Of a stretch of 64,000 nucleotides of DNA, positions 5,129-12,591 are shown in pieces. Every line of letters begins with the position of its first letter. Position 1 is the first letter of the stretch. The stretch comes from Escherichia phage ECO07P1. Position numbers and translations under genes: made by a program. Location of the stretch: sequence record OP172784. One strand, written 5' to 3'. A model generated the notes under the pieces. It was not told the origin of the DNA. It was given only the letters and a program-made list of their open reading frames with translations, and did no database searches.

Positions 5129-5397
5129 TGTTTGTCGTTCACACTATTTATGAAAATGAAGGTAATACTACGCGTGATTACGGTCACGTAAATCAATTTT
5201 TTAGATGCAATCCAGAATTCCGAGCTCAAAAAGACGAACGAATTTTTAAAAAATGTGTAGAGCAAGGTTTCATTTACGTCAAGCACTGGATGCAAGGAAA
5301 TAAAGTTAGAACTACATATCATAAGTCTTTGACTGAGCTTAATGATGAATTGATTTATAATAGAGCTGTAAACCAAACTTTGAAGGATGAGCAATGA
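5128..5397 (+). CDS. hypothetical protein (89 aa)
   Basis: ORF start overlaps previous stop; stop overlaps ligase start. Confidence 0.45.
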   Translation: MFVVHTIYENEGNTTRDYGHVNQFFRCNPEFRAQKDERIFKKCVEQGFIYVKHWMQGNKVRTTYHKSLTELNDELIYNRAVNQTLKDEQ

Positions 5398-6854
5398 TTC
5401 TTAAAATTCTGAACGAAATAGCATCTATTGGTTCAACTAAGCAGAAGCAAGCAATTCTTGAAAAGAATAAAGATAATGAATTGCTTAAACGAGTATATCG
5501 TCTAACTTATTCTCGTGGGTTACAGTATTATATCAAGAAATGGCCTAAACCTGGTATTGCTACCCAGAGTTTTGGAATGCTGACTCTTACAGATATGCTC
5601 GACTTCATTGAATTCACGTTAGCTACTCGGAAATTGACTGGAAATGCTGCAATTGAGGAATTAACTGGATATATCACTGATGGTAAAAAGGATGATGTTG
5701 AAGTTTTGCGTCGAGTTATGATGCGAGACCTTGAATGCGGTGCTTCAGTATCTATTGCAAACAAAGTTTGGCCAGGTTTAATTCCTGAACAACCTCAAAT
5801 GCTGGCAAGTTCTTATGATGAAAAGGGCATTAATAAGAATATCAAATTTCCAGCCTTTGCCCAGTTAAAAGCAGATGGAGCTCGGTGTTTTGCTGAAGTT
5901 AGAGGTGATGAATTAGATGATGTTCGTCTTTTATCACGAGCTGGCAATGAATATCTAGGATTAGATCTTCTTAAGGAAGAGTTAATCAAAATGACTGCTG
6001 AAGCCCGCCAGATTCATCCAGAAGGTGTGTTAATTGATGGCGAATTGGTATACCATGAGCAAGTTAAAAAGGAACCAGAAGGCCTAGATTTTCTTTTTGA
6101 TGCTCCTGAAATTAGTAAAGCTAAAGAATTCGCCGAAGTAGCTGAATCACGTACTGCATCTAATGGCATCGCCAATAAATCTTTAAAGGGAACCATTTCT
6201 GAAAAAGAAGCCAAATGCATGAAGTTTCAGGTCTGGGATTATGTCCCGTTGGTAGAAATATACGGTCTTCCTGCATTTCGTTTGAAATATGATGTACGTT
6301 TTTCTAAACTAGAACAAATGACATCAGGTTATGATAAAGTAATTTTAATTGAAAACCAGGTAGTAAATAACCTAGATGAAGCTAAGGTAATTTACAAAAA
6401 GTATATTGACCAAGGTCTTGAGGGTATTATTCTCAAAAATACCGATGGATTGTGGGAAAATGCTCGTTCAAAAAATCTTTATAAATTTAAAGAAGTAATT
6501 GATGTTGATTTAAAAATTGTAGGAATTTATCCTCACCGTAAAGACCCTACTAAAGCGGGCGGATTTATTCTTGAATCAGAGTGTGGAAAAATTAAGGTAA
6601 ATGCTGGTTCAGGCTTAAAAGATAAAGCTGGCGTAAAATCACATGAACTTGACCGTACTCGCATTATGGAAAACCAAAATTATTATATTGGAAAAATTCT
6701 AGAATGTGAATGCAATGGTTGGTTAAAATCTGACGGCCGCACTGATTACGTTAAATTATTTCTTCCGATTGCGATTCGTTTACGTGAAGATAAAACTAAA
6801 GCTAATACATTCGAGGATGTATTTGGTGATTTTCATGAGGTAACTGGTCTATGA
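5394..6854 (+). CDS. 30: ATP-dependent DNA ligase gp30
   Basis: 486 aa; adenylation motif KxDGxR (QLKADGARCF); translation matches T4 DNA ligase from memory. Confidence 0.95.
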   Translation: MILKILNEIASIGSTKQKQAILEKNKDNELLKRVYRLTYSRGLQYYIKKWPKPGIATQSFGMLTLTDMLDFIEFTLATRKLTGNAAIEELTGYITDGKKDDVEVLRRVMMRDLECGASVSIANKVWPGLIPEQPQMLASSYDEKGINKNIKFPAFAQLKADGARCFAEVRGDELDDVRLLSRAGNEYLGLDLLKEELIKMTAEARQIHPEGVLIDGELVYHEQVKKEPEGLDFLFDAPEISKAKEFAEVAESRTASNGIANKSLKGTISEKEAKCMKFQVWDYVPLVEIYGLPAFRLKYDVRFSKLEQMTSGYDKVILIENQVVNNLDEAKVIYKKYIDQGLEGIILKNTDGLWENARSKNLYKFKEVIDVDLKIVGIYPHRKDPTKAGGFILESECGKIKVNAGSGLKDKAGVKSHELDRTRIMENQNYYIGKILECECNGWLKSDGRTDYVKLFLPIAIRLREDKTKANTFEDVFGDFHEVTGL

Positions 6855-7039
6855 AAGCTTACTTAGAAACAATTGTCATTGCTCAAAAAGAAGGTGGAGA
6901 TGTTTCTACTTCTGTATCACAAGTCATTCTCGAATTTGTAGATGCATATGCTTATAATAAATTTACAGAAACATTTGATGCCTATGAAAAAGGACCAAAG
7001 TTTGAAATATATCGTACTCTCTTACCACTAGATTACTAA
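6851..7039 (+). CDS. hypothetical protein (62 aa)
   Basis: ORF start overlaps ligase stop (ATGA); followed by hairpin 7038-7054. Confidence 0.4.
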   Translation: MKAYLETIVIAQKEGGDVSTSVSQVILEFVDAYAYNKFTETFDAYEKGPKFEIYRTLLPLDY

Positions 7040-7059
7040 AGGCCTTCGGGCCTTTAATT
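7038..7059 (+). terminator. hairpin terminator between ligase-side small ORF and alt
   Basis: AAAGGCC-TTCG-GGCCTTT then AATTTT. Confidence 0.5.
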
Positions 7060-7060
7060 T

Positions 7061-7068
7061 TATAAATA
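7061..7068 (+). promoter_or_regulatory. late promoter TATAAATA upstream of alt
   Basis: Exact TATAAATA about 20 nt upstream of the alt start. Confidence 0.6.
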
Positions 7069-7088
7069 GAATAAACACTAGAGAGGCT

Positions 7089-9185
7089 ATGATGGAACTT
7101 ATTACAGAATTATTTGACGAAGATACTACTCTTCCGATTACAAACTTAAATCCAAAGAAGAAAATACCGCAAATTTTTTCAGTTCATGTTGATGACGCAA
7201 TTGAACAACCAGGCTTTCGTTTATGTACCTATACATCTGGAGGTGATACTAATCGCGATTTAAAAATGGGCGATAAAATGATGCATATTGTTCCTTTTAC
7301 ATTAACTGCTAAAGGTTCAATTGCTAAATTAAAAGGTCTCGGTCCAAGCCCAATTAATTATATCAATTCAGTTTTTACTGTTGCAATGCAGACGATGCGT
7401 CAGTATAAAATTGATGCCTGTATGCTCCGTATTCTTAAGTCTAAAACTGCTGGTCAAGCTCGACAAATTCAAGTTATTGCTGATAGACTTATCCGTAGTC
7501 GTTCGGGTGGCAGATACGTCCTTCTTAAGGAACTCTGGGATTACGATAAAAAGTATGCATATATTCTTATACATCGCAAAAATGTATCACTAGAAGACAT
7601 TCCAGGAGTTCCGGAAATTAGCACCGAGCTCTTTACTAAAGTTGAATCGAAGGTCGGTGATGTTTATATCAATAAAGATACTGGAGCTCAAGTAACTAAA
7701 AATGAGGCAATTGCTGCATCTATTGCGCAAGAAAATGATAAACGTTCTGACCAAGCTGTAATCGTTAAAGTTAAAATTTCCCGTAGAGCAATTGCACAAA
7801 GTCAATCATTAGAATCTTCTAGATTTGAAAGCGAATTATTCCAGAAGTATGAATCTACCGCAGCTAATTTCAATAAACCTGCTACCGCTCCTTTAATTCC
7901 CGAAGCAGAAGAAATGAAACTTGGAATTAATTCATTGGCTTCTAAAACTAAGGCAGCAAAAATTATTGCTGAAGGAACTGCAGATGAACTTCACTATGAT
8001 TATAAATTCTTTTCAAAAAGTGAGGTTAATGAAGTTTCTGAAAAAATTAAAGATGTAATTTTTAACGCGATCAAAAATGAACCGACTACTTCAATAAAAT
8101 GTTTAGAGAAGTATGCAGCAGCTATTAATAAATTCTTTGAAGAATATAAAGATACTTGGCTTGATAAACATAATAAAACCCGTAAAGGACAGCCAGATGA
8201 AGTCTGGGAAGAAATAACTAAAAATTCCTGGAACGCAGCAAAAACTAAATTCCTCAAACGAATGATTTATAGCTTTTCTGGAATTGGTGCAGGTCCAATG
8301 ATTGATATTACTATTGCCCGTGATGGTTCTAAATATACTCCATCACAAAAGCGCGGCATTAGAGAGTATTGTGGTTCAGGATATACTGACATCAATAATC
8401 TTCTTTTAGGACGCTACAATCCAGAACGATATGATGTAATGAGTGAAAAAGAAATTGAATCTGCTATAAATAACTTAGATTCAGCTTTTGAAAATGGTGA
8501 CCGTATACCGGAAGGCATTACAGTTTATCGTGCACAAAGTATGACTGCTCCTATATACGAAGCACTAGTTAAAAATAAAGTGTTCTATTTCAGAAATTTT
8601 GTATCTACTTCTTTAACTCCTATCATTTTTGGGCGTTTTGGAATTACACATGCTGGTATTGGTCTTTTAGAACCAGAAGCTCGTAATGAATTAACAGTTG
8701 ATAAAAATGAAGAAGGAATAACTATTAATCCAAACGAAATAAGAGCGTATAAAGAAAATCCTGAATACGTTAAAGTTCAAATAGGATGGGCAATTGATGG
8801 AGCTCATAAAGTTAATGTTGTATATCCAGGAAGTCTCGGAATAGCAACAGAAGCTGAAGTTATTCTACCACGCGGATTGATGGTCAAAGTTAATAAAATA
8901 ACTGATGCTTCTAATAACGACGGAACAACATCTAATAATACAAAACTCATTCAAGCTGAAGTTATGACTACGGAAGAACTCACCGAATCAGTCATTTATG
9001 ACGGTGACCGTCTAATGGAAACTGGTGAAGTAGTTGCAATGACAGGTGATATTGAAATAGAAGACAGAGTTGACTTTGCATCATTTGTTTCATCAAATGT
9101 TAAACAAAAAGTAGAATCATCTCTTGGAATTATTGCGTCTTGCATAGATATTACAAACATGCCTTACAAGTTCGTTCAAGGATAA
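7089..9185 (+). CDS. alt: Alt-like ADP-ribosyltransferase (virion-packaged), copy 1
   Basis: 698 aa; N-terminus M(M)ELITELFDEDTTLPITN matches T4 Alt from memory; ART-type R / STS / ExE elements (YRAQS.., FVSTS, EAEVILPRG); late promoter TATAAATA at 7061-7068. Confidence 0.85.
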   Translation: MMELITELFDEDTTLPITNLNPKKKIPQIFSVHVDDAIEQPGFRLCTYTSGGDTNRDLKMGDKMMHIVPFTLTAKGSIAKLKGLGPSPINYINSVFTVAMQTMRQYKIDACMLRILKSKTAGQARQIQVIADRLIRSRSGGRYVLLKELWDYDKKYAYILIHRKNVSLEDIPGVPEISTELFTKVESKVGDVYINKDTGAQVTKNEAIAASIAQENDKRSDQAVIVKVKISRRAIAQSQSLESSRFESELFQKYESTAANFNKPATAPLIPEAEEMKLGINSLASKTKAAKIIAEGTADELHYDYKFFSKSEVNEVSEKIKDVIFNAIKNEPTTSIKCLEKYAAAINKFFEEYKDTWLDKHNKTRKGQPDEVWEEITKNSWNAAKTKFLKRMIYSFSGIGAGPMIDITIARDGSKYTPSQKRGIREYCGSGYTDINNLLLGRYNPERYDVMSEKEIESAINNLDSAFENGDRIPEGITVYRAQSMTAPIYEALVKNKVFYFRNFVSTSLTPIIFGRFGITHAGIGLLEPEARNELTVDKNEEGITINPNEIRAYKENPEYVKVQIGWAIDGAHKVNVVYPGSLGIATEAEVILPRGLMVKVNKITDASNNDGTTSNNTKLIQAEVMTTEELTESVIYDGDRLMETGEVVAMTGDIEIEDRVDFASFVSSNVKQKVESSLGIIASCIDITNMPYKFVQG

Positions 9186-9188
9186 ATC

Positions 9189-11246
9189 ATGGAACTTATT
9201 ACAGAATTATTTGACGGCGCTTCGGCGCCGGTTGTTAACTTAAATCCTAAGCATAAAATACCTCAAATTTTCGCTATTCAAGCCGGTGAAGAAAGTGTGC
9301 TTCCTGGATTTAGATTTTGTACATACACCTCTGGCGGTGATACAAATAAAAACGTTAAGCCAGGCGATAAAATGATGCATATCGTAATGATAGGTGTTAA
9401 TGAGAAATTATCATTAGTTAAACTTAAAAACTTGGGTGGAAATCCAATTGGTGTTATTAATGCGGTTTTTGATACTGCTCTTCAAACAATGAAACAGTAT
9501 AAAATTGACGCATGCCTATTCCGCGTACTAAAAAGTAAAACAAATGGCGCAGCTCGTCAAATGCAAGTTATTGCTGACCGTTTAGTACGTACTAAAGGAG
9601 CAGGTCGATATGTTCTTTTAAAGGAAATCTGGGATTATGATAAAAAGTATGCATATATTATGGTTTACCGTAAAAATGCCAATTTAGAAGACATTCCAGG
9701 TGTACCTCCTATTTCAACTGAGTTATTCACAAAAGTTGAATCAAAGGTTGGTGATGTTTATGTAGATGTTAAAACAGGTAATGCTGTTCCTAAAGCTGTT
9801 GCTGTTGCTGCTTCTATTGCTTTAGAAAATGATAAGCGCACGGATCAAGCTGTTATTCAGAAAACTAAAATTAGTCGTCGATTAGCAGCGCAAGCTCAAT
9901 ATTCTACTGTAGATGCTTCGCTTCAGGGTGATAGCTTCGCTGCCAAGAAATATCAAGAGTTTGAATCTAAAGTTCCGGTATATAAAGCAGAAGGACCAAT
10001 GAACTCTGGCGTTATTCAGATTGGTTCAAACTTCAGCAAAGGAGCTATCGGTGGTATGAGAAGTGCTTCTCGTTTTAAATCTAGCGATTATGAACTAGAA
10101 AACTTCCGAAATCATATTGCATTGGCTCATGCGCGTTTACGTGATCCATCTATCAAGTTACAGAGCGATATAACATATCAAGGTTCTCAGGAATATTTAA
10201 AGAATAAAGAATTTTTTGATTATAAAACTGATAAAATTTTAAGCGATCTTGCTGACATTAATATTTCTAATAGCTTTGATGTTATTAAGAAAATCGTCAA
10301 TGATTTAGTTAAAGGTTCTAAAGCCACGCCAGACGAAAAGATAGCTATTGTTCAATTTGTCATGAATGGCATTTATAAATTGATTAATGAGTCTGCTTCT
10401 CAAGCGTATGAATATGCAAGTACCGAAGTACCCCCAAAAGGATTAACTCAGGCTGAGTCTGATGTAATTGAAGATTATTGTGCAGATTCATATGTTGAAA
10501 TGAACTCGTTCCTCTTGGGTAAACCAGATTCTACCCGTGAAGAATACATGGAACGAGCTATTAAACACATCGAGACGCTGGATTCTGCATTCGCCAAAGG
10601 ATCAGTTCTTCCTCCAGGAACTACGCTTTATCGTGGACAAGAAGTTACTTTTAAAACTTTACGCCATAATATTGAAAATAAAATGTTCTATTTCAAGAAC
10701 TTCGTATCAACATCGCTTAAACCAAATATCTTCGGTGAGTATGGTAAAAACTATATGGCCCTAGATGATTCTGGTGCAGTATTTTCTGGTGAAGGAGAAG
10801 GTTCAGTTGATGCTGAAGATTTAATGCATATGGGCAGTCACTCTGCTTACGCGAATGAAGATGCTGAAACTAGCGTGGGTATGGTAATTAAAGGGGCTGA
10901 GCGAATCAAAGTTATCGTTCCAGGTCATTTATCAGGATTTCCATCAGAAGCTGAAGTTATTCTACCGCGCGGAATTTTACTGAAGATTAATAAAGTAAGT
11001 ACGTACTTTATGAAAGAAACTGCTTATAACAAGTATCTAATAGAAGGTACAATCGTTCCTCCTTCTGAACAATTAGAGGAATCGGTATATGATGGCGACC
11101 ATCTAATGGAAACTGGCGAAGTTCGTCCAATGGCTGGATTTAATCAATTCCTTGTAGAAGAATCAAAAGAAGAGGAAAACGAAGTTTCTCAAATCTTAGC
11201 TTCTTTGGTTAACATTAACGGAATGTCTAAAAAGTTCAAAATGTAG
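9189..11246 (+). CDS. Alt-like ADP-ribosyltransferase paralog, copy 2
   Basis: 685 aa; N-terminus and C-terminal ART core (YRGQE.., FVSTS, EAEVILPRG) conserved with copy 1, central region divergent; starts 3 nt after copy 1 stop. Confidence 0.8.
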   Translation: MELITELFDGASAPVVNLNPKHKIPQIFAIQAGEESVLPGFRFCTYTSGGDTNKNVKPGDKMMHIVMIGVNEKLSLVKLKNLGGNPIGVINAVFDTALQTMKQYKIDACLFRVLKSKTNGAARQMQVIADRLVRTKGAGRYVLLKEIWDYDKKYAYIMVYRKNANLEDIPGVPPISTELFTKVESKVGDVYVDVKTGNAVPKAVAVAASIALENDKRTDQAVIQKTKISRRLAAQAQYSTVDASLQGDSFAAKKYQEFESKVPVYKAEGPMNSGVIQIGSNFSKGAIGGMRSASRFKSSDYELENFRNHIALAHARLRDPSIKLQSDITYQGSQEYLKNKEFFDYKTDKILSDLADINISNSFDVIKKIVNDLVKGSKATPDEKIAIVQFVMNGIYKLINESASQAYEYASTEVPPKGLTQAESDVIEDYCADSYVEMNSFLLGKPDSTREEYMERAIKHIETLDSAFAKGSVLPPGTTLYRGQEVTFKTLRHNIENKMFYFKNFVSTSLKPNIFGEYGKNYMALDDSGAVFSGEGEGSVDAEDLMHMGSHSAYANEDAETSVGMVIKGAERIKVIVPGHLSGFPSEAEVILPRGILLKINKVSTYFMKETAYNKYLIEGTIVPPSEQLEESVYDGDHLMETGEVRPMAGFNQFLVEESKEEENEVSQILASLVNINGMSKKFKM

Positions 11247-11301
11247 TTTACAAGTTCCTCATGTTGTGTTATAGTAGTCTTACTGACATAACATGAGGAA
11301 C
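11246..11301 (+). promoter_or_regulatory. early promoter (GTTTAC, TGt-TATAGT) nested inside a 12-bp inverted repeat whose 3' arm contains the RBS of ORF 11307
   Basis: GTTTAC 11246-11251; -10 11270-11275; arms GTTCCTCATGTT (11255-11266) and AACATGAGGAAC (11290-11301). Confidence 0.55.
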
Positions 11302-11306
11302 ACAAA

Positions 11307-11597
11307 ATGAAATCTTCTTTGCGCTTTTTAGGTCAAGAACTTGTAGTTGAAGGCGTTATTCCTGCTGATAACGCTTTTAATGAAGCAGTTTACGATGAAT
11401 TTATCAAAATTTTTGGAACAGATAAAAAGTTCGGAATTTTTCCTTCTGAAAATTTTTCAAAGCCAGAACAGACTGAAAGTATTTTTCAGGGTGTGGTAAC
11501 AGGTAAATTTGAGTCAGAAGCTCCGGTAAAAATTGAAGTTTATATTGAAGACAGTTTAGTTGCTTCAGTTGCTGCTTTCATTTCATTCCGTAAATAA
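11307..11597 (+). CDS. hypothetical protein (96 aa)
   Basis: ORF with RBS GAGGAACACAAAATG; own early promoter cassette; hairpin terminator at 11602-11623. Confidence 0.45.
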   Translation: MKSSLRFLGQELVVEGVIPADNAFNEAVYDEFIKIFGTDKKFGIFPSENFSKPEQTESIFQGVVTGKFESEAPVKIEVYIEDSLVASVAAFISFRK

Positions 11598-11601
11598 AAA
11601 C

Positions 11602-11623
11602 ATGGGGACCGAAAGGTCCCCAT
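11602..11623. terminator. bidirectional terminator hairpin between convergent genes
   Basis: ATGGGGACC-GAAA-GGTCCCCAT flanked by A-run upstream and T-rich downstream; sits between ORF 11307 (+) and gp54 (-). Confidence 0.65.
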
Positions 11624-11625
11624 TG

Positions 11626-12591
11626 TTATATTGCTCCTAATATTTTACTCTGCGAATTGACAATCCCTGTCATAGTATTAATGTTTGAAATGCTTCCTGC
11701 AGTTCCACCTAATCTACTAAGTCGTGAAAGCGAACTAGATAGTTCAGTAACACCTCCATTATTTCCAGAAGAGCTTTGAATACCATTTATAGCAGCAGAT
11801 TCAAGCCATTCAAGCGCAGCTTGTCTATCAACTGCTCCAGCCTGCATGACTCTATACGCAAAAGTAACATCAAATGTAGTTATTTGGTTATCTCCATCAT
11901 ATGATAACTCAGGAGCGCTCACTGACACTGGAATGCATCCGGTGAACATCACCGCAGTATGAGGCAATCCATTGCGAGAATGAAGATTAACTTGGATATC
12001 CGCCTCGACATCTTGCGGCAGAGCACGTAATCCAGTTACTGGGTCTTGAACAGCATTGACCCAGTCTTGCATTGCACGATAATTACACGACTCTGAATCC
12101 ATTCTAAATGAAATAACCAAAGGGTCTAATTCTCTCCCGGTTATGCGAATATTAGGAGAATTATAGTTCCAGTCAGTTTCATAAGATAATCTATTCTCTG
12201 GCATTTTTACAGAGTATATCATCAATCCAGATGAGTTATATGCCATGTTAAAGAAGTCAATTAAATATGTACCAACTGTAAATGAGCCTAATAAACTTTG
12301 AACTGTACGTTGACTCATTGCACCAATTAGATATTTACTGACTCCTGATTTTCTTGTCAGTTTTTGTGTTCCAGCAGTAATTAACGTTGTAATTCCCTGA
12401 TTAATATCGCCTTGGGTTAATCCTAACCAATCTGAATTTAGACCCAAGTTATTATAAGAAAAGTTGCTAATTGAACTTATCAACGAAGAGCTTTTAGTTG
12501 ATGGAGTTGTCGCAAAAACGCAGCTAAACATATTATTACGTTGAAAATCTGCGTTTATTGCTTGATTATTAAATTCCTCTAAAGAATACAT
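11626..12591 (-). CDS. 54: baseplate tail-tube initiator gp54
   Basis: 321 aa; position and length as T4 gp54, adjacent to gp48/gp29. Confidence 0.8.
   Translation of the reverse strand: MYSLEEFNNQAINADFQRNNMFSCVFATTPSTKSSSLISSISNFSYNNLGLNSDWLGLTQGDINQGITTLITAGTQKLTRKSGVSKYLIGAMSQRTVQSLLGSFTVGTYLIDFFNMAYNSSGLMIYSVKMPENRLSYETDWNYNSPNIRITGRELDPLVISFRMDSESCNYRAMQDWVNAVQDPVTGLRALPQDVEADIQVNLHSRNGLPHTAVMFTGCIPVSVSAPELSYDGDNQITTFDVTFAYRVMQAGAVDRQAALEWLESAAINGIQSSSGNNGGVTELSSSLSRLSRLGGTAGSISNINTMTGIVNSQSKILGAI

Follow-up and report, generated by a model that had tools for sequence, protein, structure and literature searches.

Alt and Alt2 of a T4-like coliphage: old tandem paralogs of the internal-head ADP-ribosyltransferase, with a proposed mechanism of shared delivery and different targets

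Bacteriophage T4 serves as the model for ADP-ribosyltransferases that are injected into the host cell. According to a review (PMC9026906), about 40 copies of its Alt protein are carried in the head and ejected into the host, and both termini of the protein are removed by gp21. T4 Alt ADP-ribosylates the RNA polymerase alpha subunit of Escherichia coli and other host proteins (PMC9503650, PMC5512222). In T4, the genes at this locus are ordered ligase, alt.1, alt (682 aa), alt.-1 (61 aa), alt.-2 (67 aa), alt.-3 and gene 54. We analyzed the corresponding locus in a stretch of 64,000 nucleotides from Escherichia phage ECO07P1 (sequence record OP172784), called the window below. Here two full-length genes of the Alt type, copy 1 (A1) and copy 2 (A2), stand in tandem:

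7089..9185, + strand: alt, copy 1 (A1), positional ortholog of T4 alt but another allele; 698 aa (697 aa from 7092)
9189..11246, + strand: alt2, copy 2 (A2), 685 aa; named 'ADP-ribosyltransferase Alt2' in BASEL

The gene order in the window, 5′ to 3′, is ligase, alt.1 homolog, A1, A2, alt.-3 homolog, and genes 54, 48 and 29. The last three, baseplate genes, lie downstream and are convergent with the alt pair. From ligase and alt.1 on one side to alt.-3 and gene 54 on the other, the order around the pair matches the T4 layout. A 4.85-kb stretch with the pair matched Escherichia phage ECO07P3 at 100% identity and many further Tequatrovirus genomes at 97-98%, and at least 80% of it was covered in 356 phage records. 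Many of these, RefSeq Tequatrovirus among them, carry the label 'Alt-like RNA polymerase ADP-ribosyltransferase (x2)', and BASEL records label the pair 'ADP-ribosyltransferase Alt' and 'ADP-ribosyltransferase Alt2'. This near-identity, together with the annotations, identified the locus as the alt locus of a T4-like coliphage. Such a tandem Alt/Alt2 pair is what Tequatrovirus genomes commonly have; it was known before and is annotated in many records.

We concluded that Alt and Alt2 are old tandem paralogs of the T4 internal-head ADP-ribosyltransferase, and we propose that they share a mode of delivery and differ in their targets. We assign this reading as a whole a probability of about 0.7.

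Paralogy, domains and age of the two copies

A sequence-only reading of the window had taken the two back-to-back open reading frames (ORFs) of 698 and 685 aa for Alt-type paralogs with common ends. Both ORFs were confirmed on the + strand, and the paralogy held. The two proteins were 41% identical in BLASTP (E = 2e-158), and each matched the family phrog_802 ('Alt-like RNA polymerase ADP-ribosyltransferase') end to end (A1 residues 1-696, E = 3.3e-272; A2 residues 1-685, E = 2.2e-255). Over residues 1-240 they were 53-75% identical to each other, and over the same residues A1 was ~100% and A2 67% identical to T4 Alt. All the motifs that had been quoted as shared were present: MELITE, YR.Q, FVSTS, EAEVILPRG and YDGD.LMETGE were located by script, and CTYTSGGDTN, KQYKIDAC and GRYVLLKE.WDYDKKYAYI were seen in the translations and alignments of A1 and A2. 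One of them needs a different placement. YR.Q, FVSTS and EAEVILPRG belong to the catalytic core as claimed, but YDGD.LMETGE sits past the catalytic domain, in the C-terminal tail, where it adjoins candidate prohead-protease sites. The parts of the two proteins, with the bounds of the variable inserts approximate, are as follows:

7092..7109, + strand: MELITE, N-terminal propeptide of A1, with an I-T-E gp21 site at its end; the exact site is putative
7110..7811, + strand: A1 conserved N-terminal alpha/beta domain and three short helices, residues 7-240; putative module for packaging into the head core
7812..8339, + strand: A1 all-helical, hypervariable middle, residues 241-416; modelled helices at 248-409
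8340..8987, + strand: A1 ADP-ribosyltransferase domain, residues 417-632 (Pfam, motifs and fold)
8529-8531, 8604-8612 and 8850-8858, + strand: A1 active-site residues Arg480, Ser-Thr-Ser 505-507 and Glu587-x-Glu589
8640-8771, + strand: A1 variable insert, ~517-560; predicted local distance difference test score (pLDDT) <50 at 517-541 (8640-8714), no conserved strand before 561
8988..9182, + strand: A1 C-terminal tail, residues 633-697, proposed propeptide; follows LTE 630-632, with a second candidate site at LME 641-643
9189..9905, + strand: A2 propeptide MELITE and conserved N-terminal domain, residues 1-239
9906..10448, + strand: A2 hypervariable helical middle, residues 240-420
10449..11081, + strand: A2 ADP-ribosyltransferase domain, residues 421-631 (Pfam PF03496, E = 4.7e-20; fold match)
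10632-10634, 10707-10715 and 10947-10955, + strand: A2 active-site residues Arg482, Ser-Thr-Ser 507-509 and Glu587-x-Glu589
10740-10862, + strand: A2 variable insert, ~518-558; pLDDT <50 at 518-554 (10740-10850)
11082..11243, + strand: A2 C-terminal tail, proposed propeptide by analogy with A1; follows L-E-E 629-631, with LME at 639-641

The central regions had been called unrelated, and this was true of the sequence only. Residues ~241-440 of A1 and A2 were 3-25% identical, and the middles alone (A1 245-400 against A2 240-404) had no BLASTP similarity (E = 8.2), but both were predicted as entirely helical, with long helices following one another in a similar way. The catalytic domains were 25-45% identical, with one highly divergent insert.

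Confident structure models of the two proteins (A1: pLDDT 85.6, predicted template-modelling score (pTM) 0.82; A2: pLDDT 77.8, pTM 0.73) had the same predicted layout. An alpha/beta domain (~15-195) comes first, then three short helices, long helices in a bundle (~248-410), an ADP-ribosyltransferase (ART) domain (~417-630) with a low-confidence insert, and a poorly defined tail. The Pfam family ADPrib_exo_Tox (PF03496) was matched with 129.1 bits by A1 and 72.2 bits by A2, against a curated cut-off of 23.4. The C-terminal domain of both models matched ADP-ribosyltransferases of the C3/VIP2/iota type, with the layout of the R-S-E clade: Arg on predicted strand 1, Ser-Thr-Ser on predicted strand 2, and Glu-x-Glu before predicted strand 5. 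The second copy had been at issue in the sequence-only reading as possibly lacking catalytic residues; it has all of them. Arg482, Ser507, Glu587 and Glu589 (in the amino acid numbering of A2) were invariant in 57 representatives of the family. In a sequence search against solved structures, A1 residues 414-483 matched CdtA/iota toxin over this short stretch only, and A2 had no match. A viral fold library returned Alt relatives and other ART domains only, and an NCBIfam scan of four proteins gave no match.

Synonymous sites between A1 and A2 were saturated throughout. In the N-terminal domain, synonymous divergence (dS) was 0.7-1.9, nonsynonymous divergence (dN) was 0.2-0.36, and DNA identity was 63-73%. 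The duplication is therefore old, and the shared ends have been maintained by selection, not by gene conversion. Within each type, compared in five genomes, dN/dS was 0.00-0.07 for Alt2 and 0.02-0.11 for Alt, the middles included. Both genes are thus functional and under strong purifying selection, and the middle is no free spacer.

The same pattern was found beyond the pair. With residues 1-239 as the query, only 71 relatives were recovered from 1.84 billion representative proteins, in which the Alt N-terminal domain was almost always N-terminal in proteins of ~600-710 aa. The ART domain was carried by 58 of 63 scanned relatives and by all 57 of a cleaner set. Among these 57 representatives, mean pairwise identity was 0.32-0.48 over residues 1-240, fell to 0.03-0.11 at 241-420, rose to 0.3-0.55 over most of the catalytic domain, and was 0.06-0.08 in the insert at 521-560. 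Glu6 was nearly invariant in the family, and Glu631/632 was at least 90% conserved. Judged from this profile, conserved ends with a divergent middle are the general Alt design and nothing special to the window pair. A first homolog search had returned 120 near-identical T4-type sequences and was of little use for diversity.

Other identities were considered for the N-terminal domain. A general adaptor in the style of polymorphic toxins was rejected, as nearly all of the 71 representatives have the same ART domain; odd Pfam matches among the relatives were few, single and weak, and occurred in the lowest-scoring sequences. A GNAT acetyltransferase was rejected, since no GNAT fold with an acetyl-CoA binding motif was recognized by sequence profile. 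A MuF identity was rejected because there was no MuF Pfam match in A1, A2 or the 57 relatives; MuF-ART proteins in the viral fold search were matched through the ART domain only. The family PF26846 is listed in precomputed annotations on all A1 relatives of the first search (P0001-P0120), and the Pfam copy that we scanned reported no PF26846. It may have been defined recently, for the N-terminal region of Alt.

Relation to the T4 locus

The sequence-only reading had allowed for the pair being a standard T4 alt with its neighbour. The window pair differs from the T4 arrangement, which consists of one alt and the stump alt.-1/alt.-2. T4 DNA was 96.6% identical to the window over 9120-9536 and then jumped to 11227-11642, at 96.2%. 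The two ends of the jump carry the same short sequence:

9528..9536, + strand: 9-nt direct repeat CTAAAAAGT, left copy, at the left end of the T4-type deletion
11227..11235, + strand: 9-nt direct repeat CTAAAAAGT, right copy, at the right end of the T4-type deletion

T4 lacks the 1,690 bp between the CTAAAAAGT repeats and has, in addition, a frameshift near codon 55. The alignment jump and the repeat identify T4 alt.-1/alt.-2 as Alt2 after a 1,690-bp deletion and a frameshift, that is, as the remnant of a full-length gene and not a partial duplication. The T4 record, in contrast, words them as 'an old duplication of the first part of gene alt'. The PHROG families of alt.-1 and alt.-2 matched A2 (2e-40 and 3e-38) far better than A1 (1e-21 and 2e-19). 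The deletion junction was present in 91 of 499 matching records (T4 and 90 others) and was identical in every deleted genome examined, namely T4, L003 and L005. This shared junction points either to one deletion that recombination then spread or to a hotspot at which it recurs.

The A2 middle was found at 90% identity or more in 401 phage records, including T2, RB3, RB68 and AR1, at one place per record. From these 401 records and the 91 of 499 with the deletion junction, roughly four of five sequenced Tequatroviruses have the full-length second copy. For these counts an annotated phage collection was used, because a scan of IMG/VR gave 12 loci only, too few for a census.

The first copy also differs from T4. 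The following segment of A1 is deeply unlike T4 alt in sliding DNA identity:

7830..9030, + strand: A1 allelic cassette (middle and catalytic domain)

A1 and T4 alt were 97-98% identical in DNA over codons 1-240 (dS ~0.1) and 94-98% identical from codon 639 on. Between these flanks, over ~7830-9030, identity was 37-83% with saturated synonymous sites; this segment takes in all of the catalytic domain as well as the helical middle. A1 is a mosaic, in which an old alternative allele has recombined into T4-like flanks. The A1 type of middle was found at 90% identity or more in 319 records, and T4-type middles were only ~36% identical to it.

All four combinations of first-copy allele and second-copy state were seen. 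The T4-type allele occurs with Alt2 in L004 and with the deletion in T4 and L003; the A1-type allele occurs with Alt2 in the window, L006, L014 and L015 and with the deletion in L005. From these combinations, the locus holds old, discrete effector alleles, which recombine through conserved flanks. Tequatroviruses circulate at least three old effector versions: T4-type Alt, A1-type Alt and Alt2.

Duplicated or split Alt-like genes were also seen in other phages. Citrobacter phage CF1-like contigs (L008-L010), from more distant T4-like phages, have two tandem Alt-like genes of other types; the second copy in L008 is split into ORFs of 392 aa and 315 aa. Acinetobacter phages ZZ1 and Henu6, found as matches in the viral fold search, are annotated with a 'split RNA polymerase ADP-ribosylase'. 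Duplications of alt had been listed before by Nolan et al. 2006 (PMC1524935), among them one in phage 44RR that is full-length.

Proposed mechanism and its alternatives

Signals around the start of each gene are consistent with late expression of the pair:

7037..7056, + strand: terminator-like hairpin just upstream of the alt operon (terminator scan; 8-pair stem, then a T run)
7061..7068, + strand: T4 late-promoter box TATAAATA, exact match, 21-24 nt upstream of the alt start
9178..9182, + strand: Shine-Dalgarno-like AAGGA for alt2, read within the last alt codons

The window has 23 late-promoter boxes TATAAATA, against 9.2 expected, and the one at 7061-7068 stands ahead of A1 as a sequence signal for late expression. 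An exact-match scan found no TATAAATA box in the 3-nt gap between A1 and A2. The alt2 ATG follows the alt stop by 3 nt and has its own ribosome-binding site inside A1, an arrangement in which the two genes would be co-transcribed and their translation coupled. A second exact TATAAATA box at 8465-8472 (+ strand) lies inside the coding sequence of the A1 catalytic domain, ~720 nt upstream of alt2. This box could start a separate late alt2 transcript, or AT-rich DNA could have produced it by chance.

A1 begins with ATGATG (7089-7094). T4 alt opens with this double ATG too, and its annotation uses the second, so that 7092 (697 aa) is more likely to be the A1 start than 7089. The spacing of the ribosome-binding site GAGAGG (7081-7086) is also better for the second ATG. 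The N-terminal propeptide of Alt is given as 7 residues in the review (PMC9026906), which would fit MMELITE from the first ATG.

The mechanism that we propose is the following. A1 and A2 would be made late, from one transcript starting at the TATAAATA box at 7061. Each copy would be taken into the prohead core through its conserved N-terminal domain (residues 7-240). There gp21 would trim each after I-T-E (Glu6) and after the conserved L-x-E near 631/632, giving products of ~70 and ~69 kDa, and each would be injected with the DNA. Once in the cell, each would use NAD+ to mono-ADP-ribosylate arginines of host proteins through R / S-T-S / E-x-E. The helical middle (~240-420), together with the insert between S-T-S and E-x-E, would give each copy its own host targets. 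The locus would thus be a constant delivery chassis with exchangeable effector parts. As motifs, gp21-type (L/I)-x-E sites are present in both copies, with I-T-E at 4-6, L-x-E at 629-632 and L-M-E near the C-terminus. A second target specificity for Alt2, as suggested in the sequence-only reading, appears reasonable.

Published data on a relative bear on the different behavior of the versions. In a HIDEN-SEQ preprint (10.1101/2025.11.20.689424), expressed T4 Alt relieved Mokosh type I and Bas37_0033 did not; Bas37_0033 is the A1-type Alt of the window. In its supplementary tables, Alt2 of Bas37 (bas37_0032) is classed as 'Intermediate', with 116 of 164 sites hit and a mean count of 44.5; Alt (bas37_0033) is classed as 'Non-essential', and its count on K-12 averaged 203.6. 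This suggests that Alt2 matters for fitness in Bas37; the reading of the tables is our own and is not discussed in the main text of the preprint.

Several points weigh against shared delivery with different targets. Insertion counts in Alt2 could be low because truncated products do harm, and not because function is lost. Our literature searches found no paper discussing Alt2 and no evidence on its presence in the virion, cleavage, injection or ADP-ribosylation, and a search for a virion proteome with two Alt proteins gave nothing relevant. Alt2 is absent in ~18% of Tequatrovirus records, T4 included, and is therefore dispensable in some backgrounds. Finally, unlike middles need not imply unlike targets.

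The alternative that survives best, which we consider improbable, is that Alt2 is a redundant back-up or dosage copy with the same host targets as Alt, its middle being a tolerant spacer with no role in specificity. Alt and Alt2 have the same catalytic motifs and are built alike overall, Alt2 is missing from T4 and 90 other records, and the review (PMC9026906) describes T4 Alt as non-essential. A free spacer is, however, at odds with the purifying selection on the middle within each type (dN/dS 0.07-0.11). The paralogs have also been distinct long enough for synonymous sites to be saturated, insertions in Alt2 and Alt behave differently in Bas37, and Mokosh type I is affected in different ways by the two Alt alleles.

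We give somewhat less weight to an Alt2 that is not packaged at all and acts late in the producing cell, as ModA and ModB do, or on phage or nucleic-acid substrates (for example, by RNAylation). The literature searches found no virion data for Alt2, and ModB, an R-S-E enzyme of T4, can attach NAD-capped RNA (PMC10468400). Against this, Alt2 retains the whole Alt-specific N-terminal domain (65-75% identity), MELITE with Glu6, and the conserved C-terminal L-x-E, features with no obvious use in an unpackaged enzyme. It also lies directly behind alt, with the promoter box absent from the 3-nt gap.

It is very unlikely that Alt2 has lost its catalytic activity or is decaying towards the T4 state, as a pseudo-enzyme or a head filler. 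Such an end state exists in T4 as the frameshifted, deleted remnant, and the A2 model is less confident than that of A1 (77.8 against 85.6), but the motifs, the fold and the dN/dS of Alt2 contradict this explanation. Least likely of all is an origin of the conserved ends in recent duplication or gene conversion and not in functional constraint, which was rejected on the saturation of synonymous sites between the copies. DNA similarity is slightly higher over the first 40 codons (73%, dS 0.70) than elsewhere in the N-terminal domain, but dS and dN in that domain indicate old divergence with purifying selection, and tandem pairs exist in more distant phages too (L008-L010; 44RR, PMC1524935).

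Shared delivery with different targets is thus the reading that we prefer. A tentative extension of it, to which we give rather less than even odds, is that the alt locus is a delivery chassis, with an N-terminal head-targeting domain and protease-trimmed ends, and that Tequatroviruses swap at least three old cassettes (T4-type, A1-type and Alt2) by recombination in its conserved flanks, each with a host protein or defence target of its own. Alt2, unstudied owing to the T4 deletion, would then perhaps be the more important version in most natural T-even phages, with a target other than RNA polymerase.

The analysis is a clarification more than a discovery: the pair is real, intact, common and annotated in T4-like coliphages. 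What is new, in a small way, is the exact deletion behind T4 alt.-1/alt.-2, the recognition of A1 as an old recombined allele, and the family-wide conservation profile. T4, the model for injected ADP-ribosyltransferases, is atypical: a simple deletion has removed its Alt2, and of the two old Alt alleles it has only one. Studies of these injected enzymes (RNA polymerase alteration, MazF, Mokosh type I) have therefore sampled one of three effector versions. A phage like ECO07P1, or its close relative Bas37, would allow a direct test of the other two.

Neighbouring genes and comparison with known systems

The features that flank the pair are as follows:

5394-6854: DNA ligase (gene 30), upstream of the alt.1 homolog and A1
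6851..7039, + strand: T4 alt.1 homolog, 62 aa, between ligase and alt (Pfam PF24647 Phage_blade, E = 1.9e-29; same position in T4)
11247..11275, + strand: early-type promoter-like site upstream of the alt.-3 homolog (TTTACA, 17-nt spacer, TATAGT with TG; 10 of 12 matches in the scan)
11307..11597, + strand: T4 alt.-3 homolog, 96 aa, DUF5498, downstream neighbour (Pfam PF17602, E = 1.4e-64; T4 layout)
11602..11623, both strands: strong bidirectional terminator hairpin, 9-pair stem, between the alt.-3 homolog and convergent gene 54

The start of the alt.1 homolog, a 'Phage blade protein', overlaps the ligase stop. As for alt.-3, C-terminal extensions of the T4 protein lead to phage escape from the CmdTAC defence (PMC11618068). 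Insertions in its Bas37 homolog, bas37_0031, were depleted on uropathogenic E. coli CFT073 (log2 fold change -2.70, adjusted p 0.02; supplement of 10.1101/2025.11.20.689424).

The closest described protein, T4 Alt (NP_049811, 682 aa), resembles A1 in its site between alt.1 and gene 54, in R / S-T-S / E-x-E and in its MELITE start. The N-terminal 240 residues are ~100% and the C-terminal 60 residues ~90% identical. The two differ over A1 residues ~247-645, with 14-30% protein identity in the middle and ~60% in the catalytic domain. For A2, bas37_0032 of phage KarlGJung and bas39_0033 of phage FriedrichMiescher are the same gene, of 685 aa, with a segment identity of 96-100% in BLASTP. These BASEL Alt2 genes lie at the same place, 3 nt after alt, with no difference of substance from A2.

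ModA and ModB are small (~200 aa) early proteins that lack the N-terminal and middle regions of Alt. They are ADP-ribosyltransferases of the T4 group and belong to the same R-S-E (Alt/VIP2) clade as Alt; Alt, unlike them, is injected from the head with the DNA (PMC5512222). The C3/VIP2/iota toxins (Vis, C3bot2, CPILE-a, Certhrax, VIP2) are secreted and have other delivery parts, and the N-terminal domain and middle of Alt have no counterpart there. MuF-ART and polyvalent proteins (PMC9503650, PMC5512222) follow the same logic as Alt, a virion-associated part joined to a delivered enzyme. Unlike them, the Alt family has almost only one enzyme type; its members vary in the middle and the loops rather than in the enzyme that they carry.

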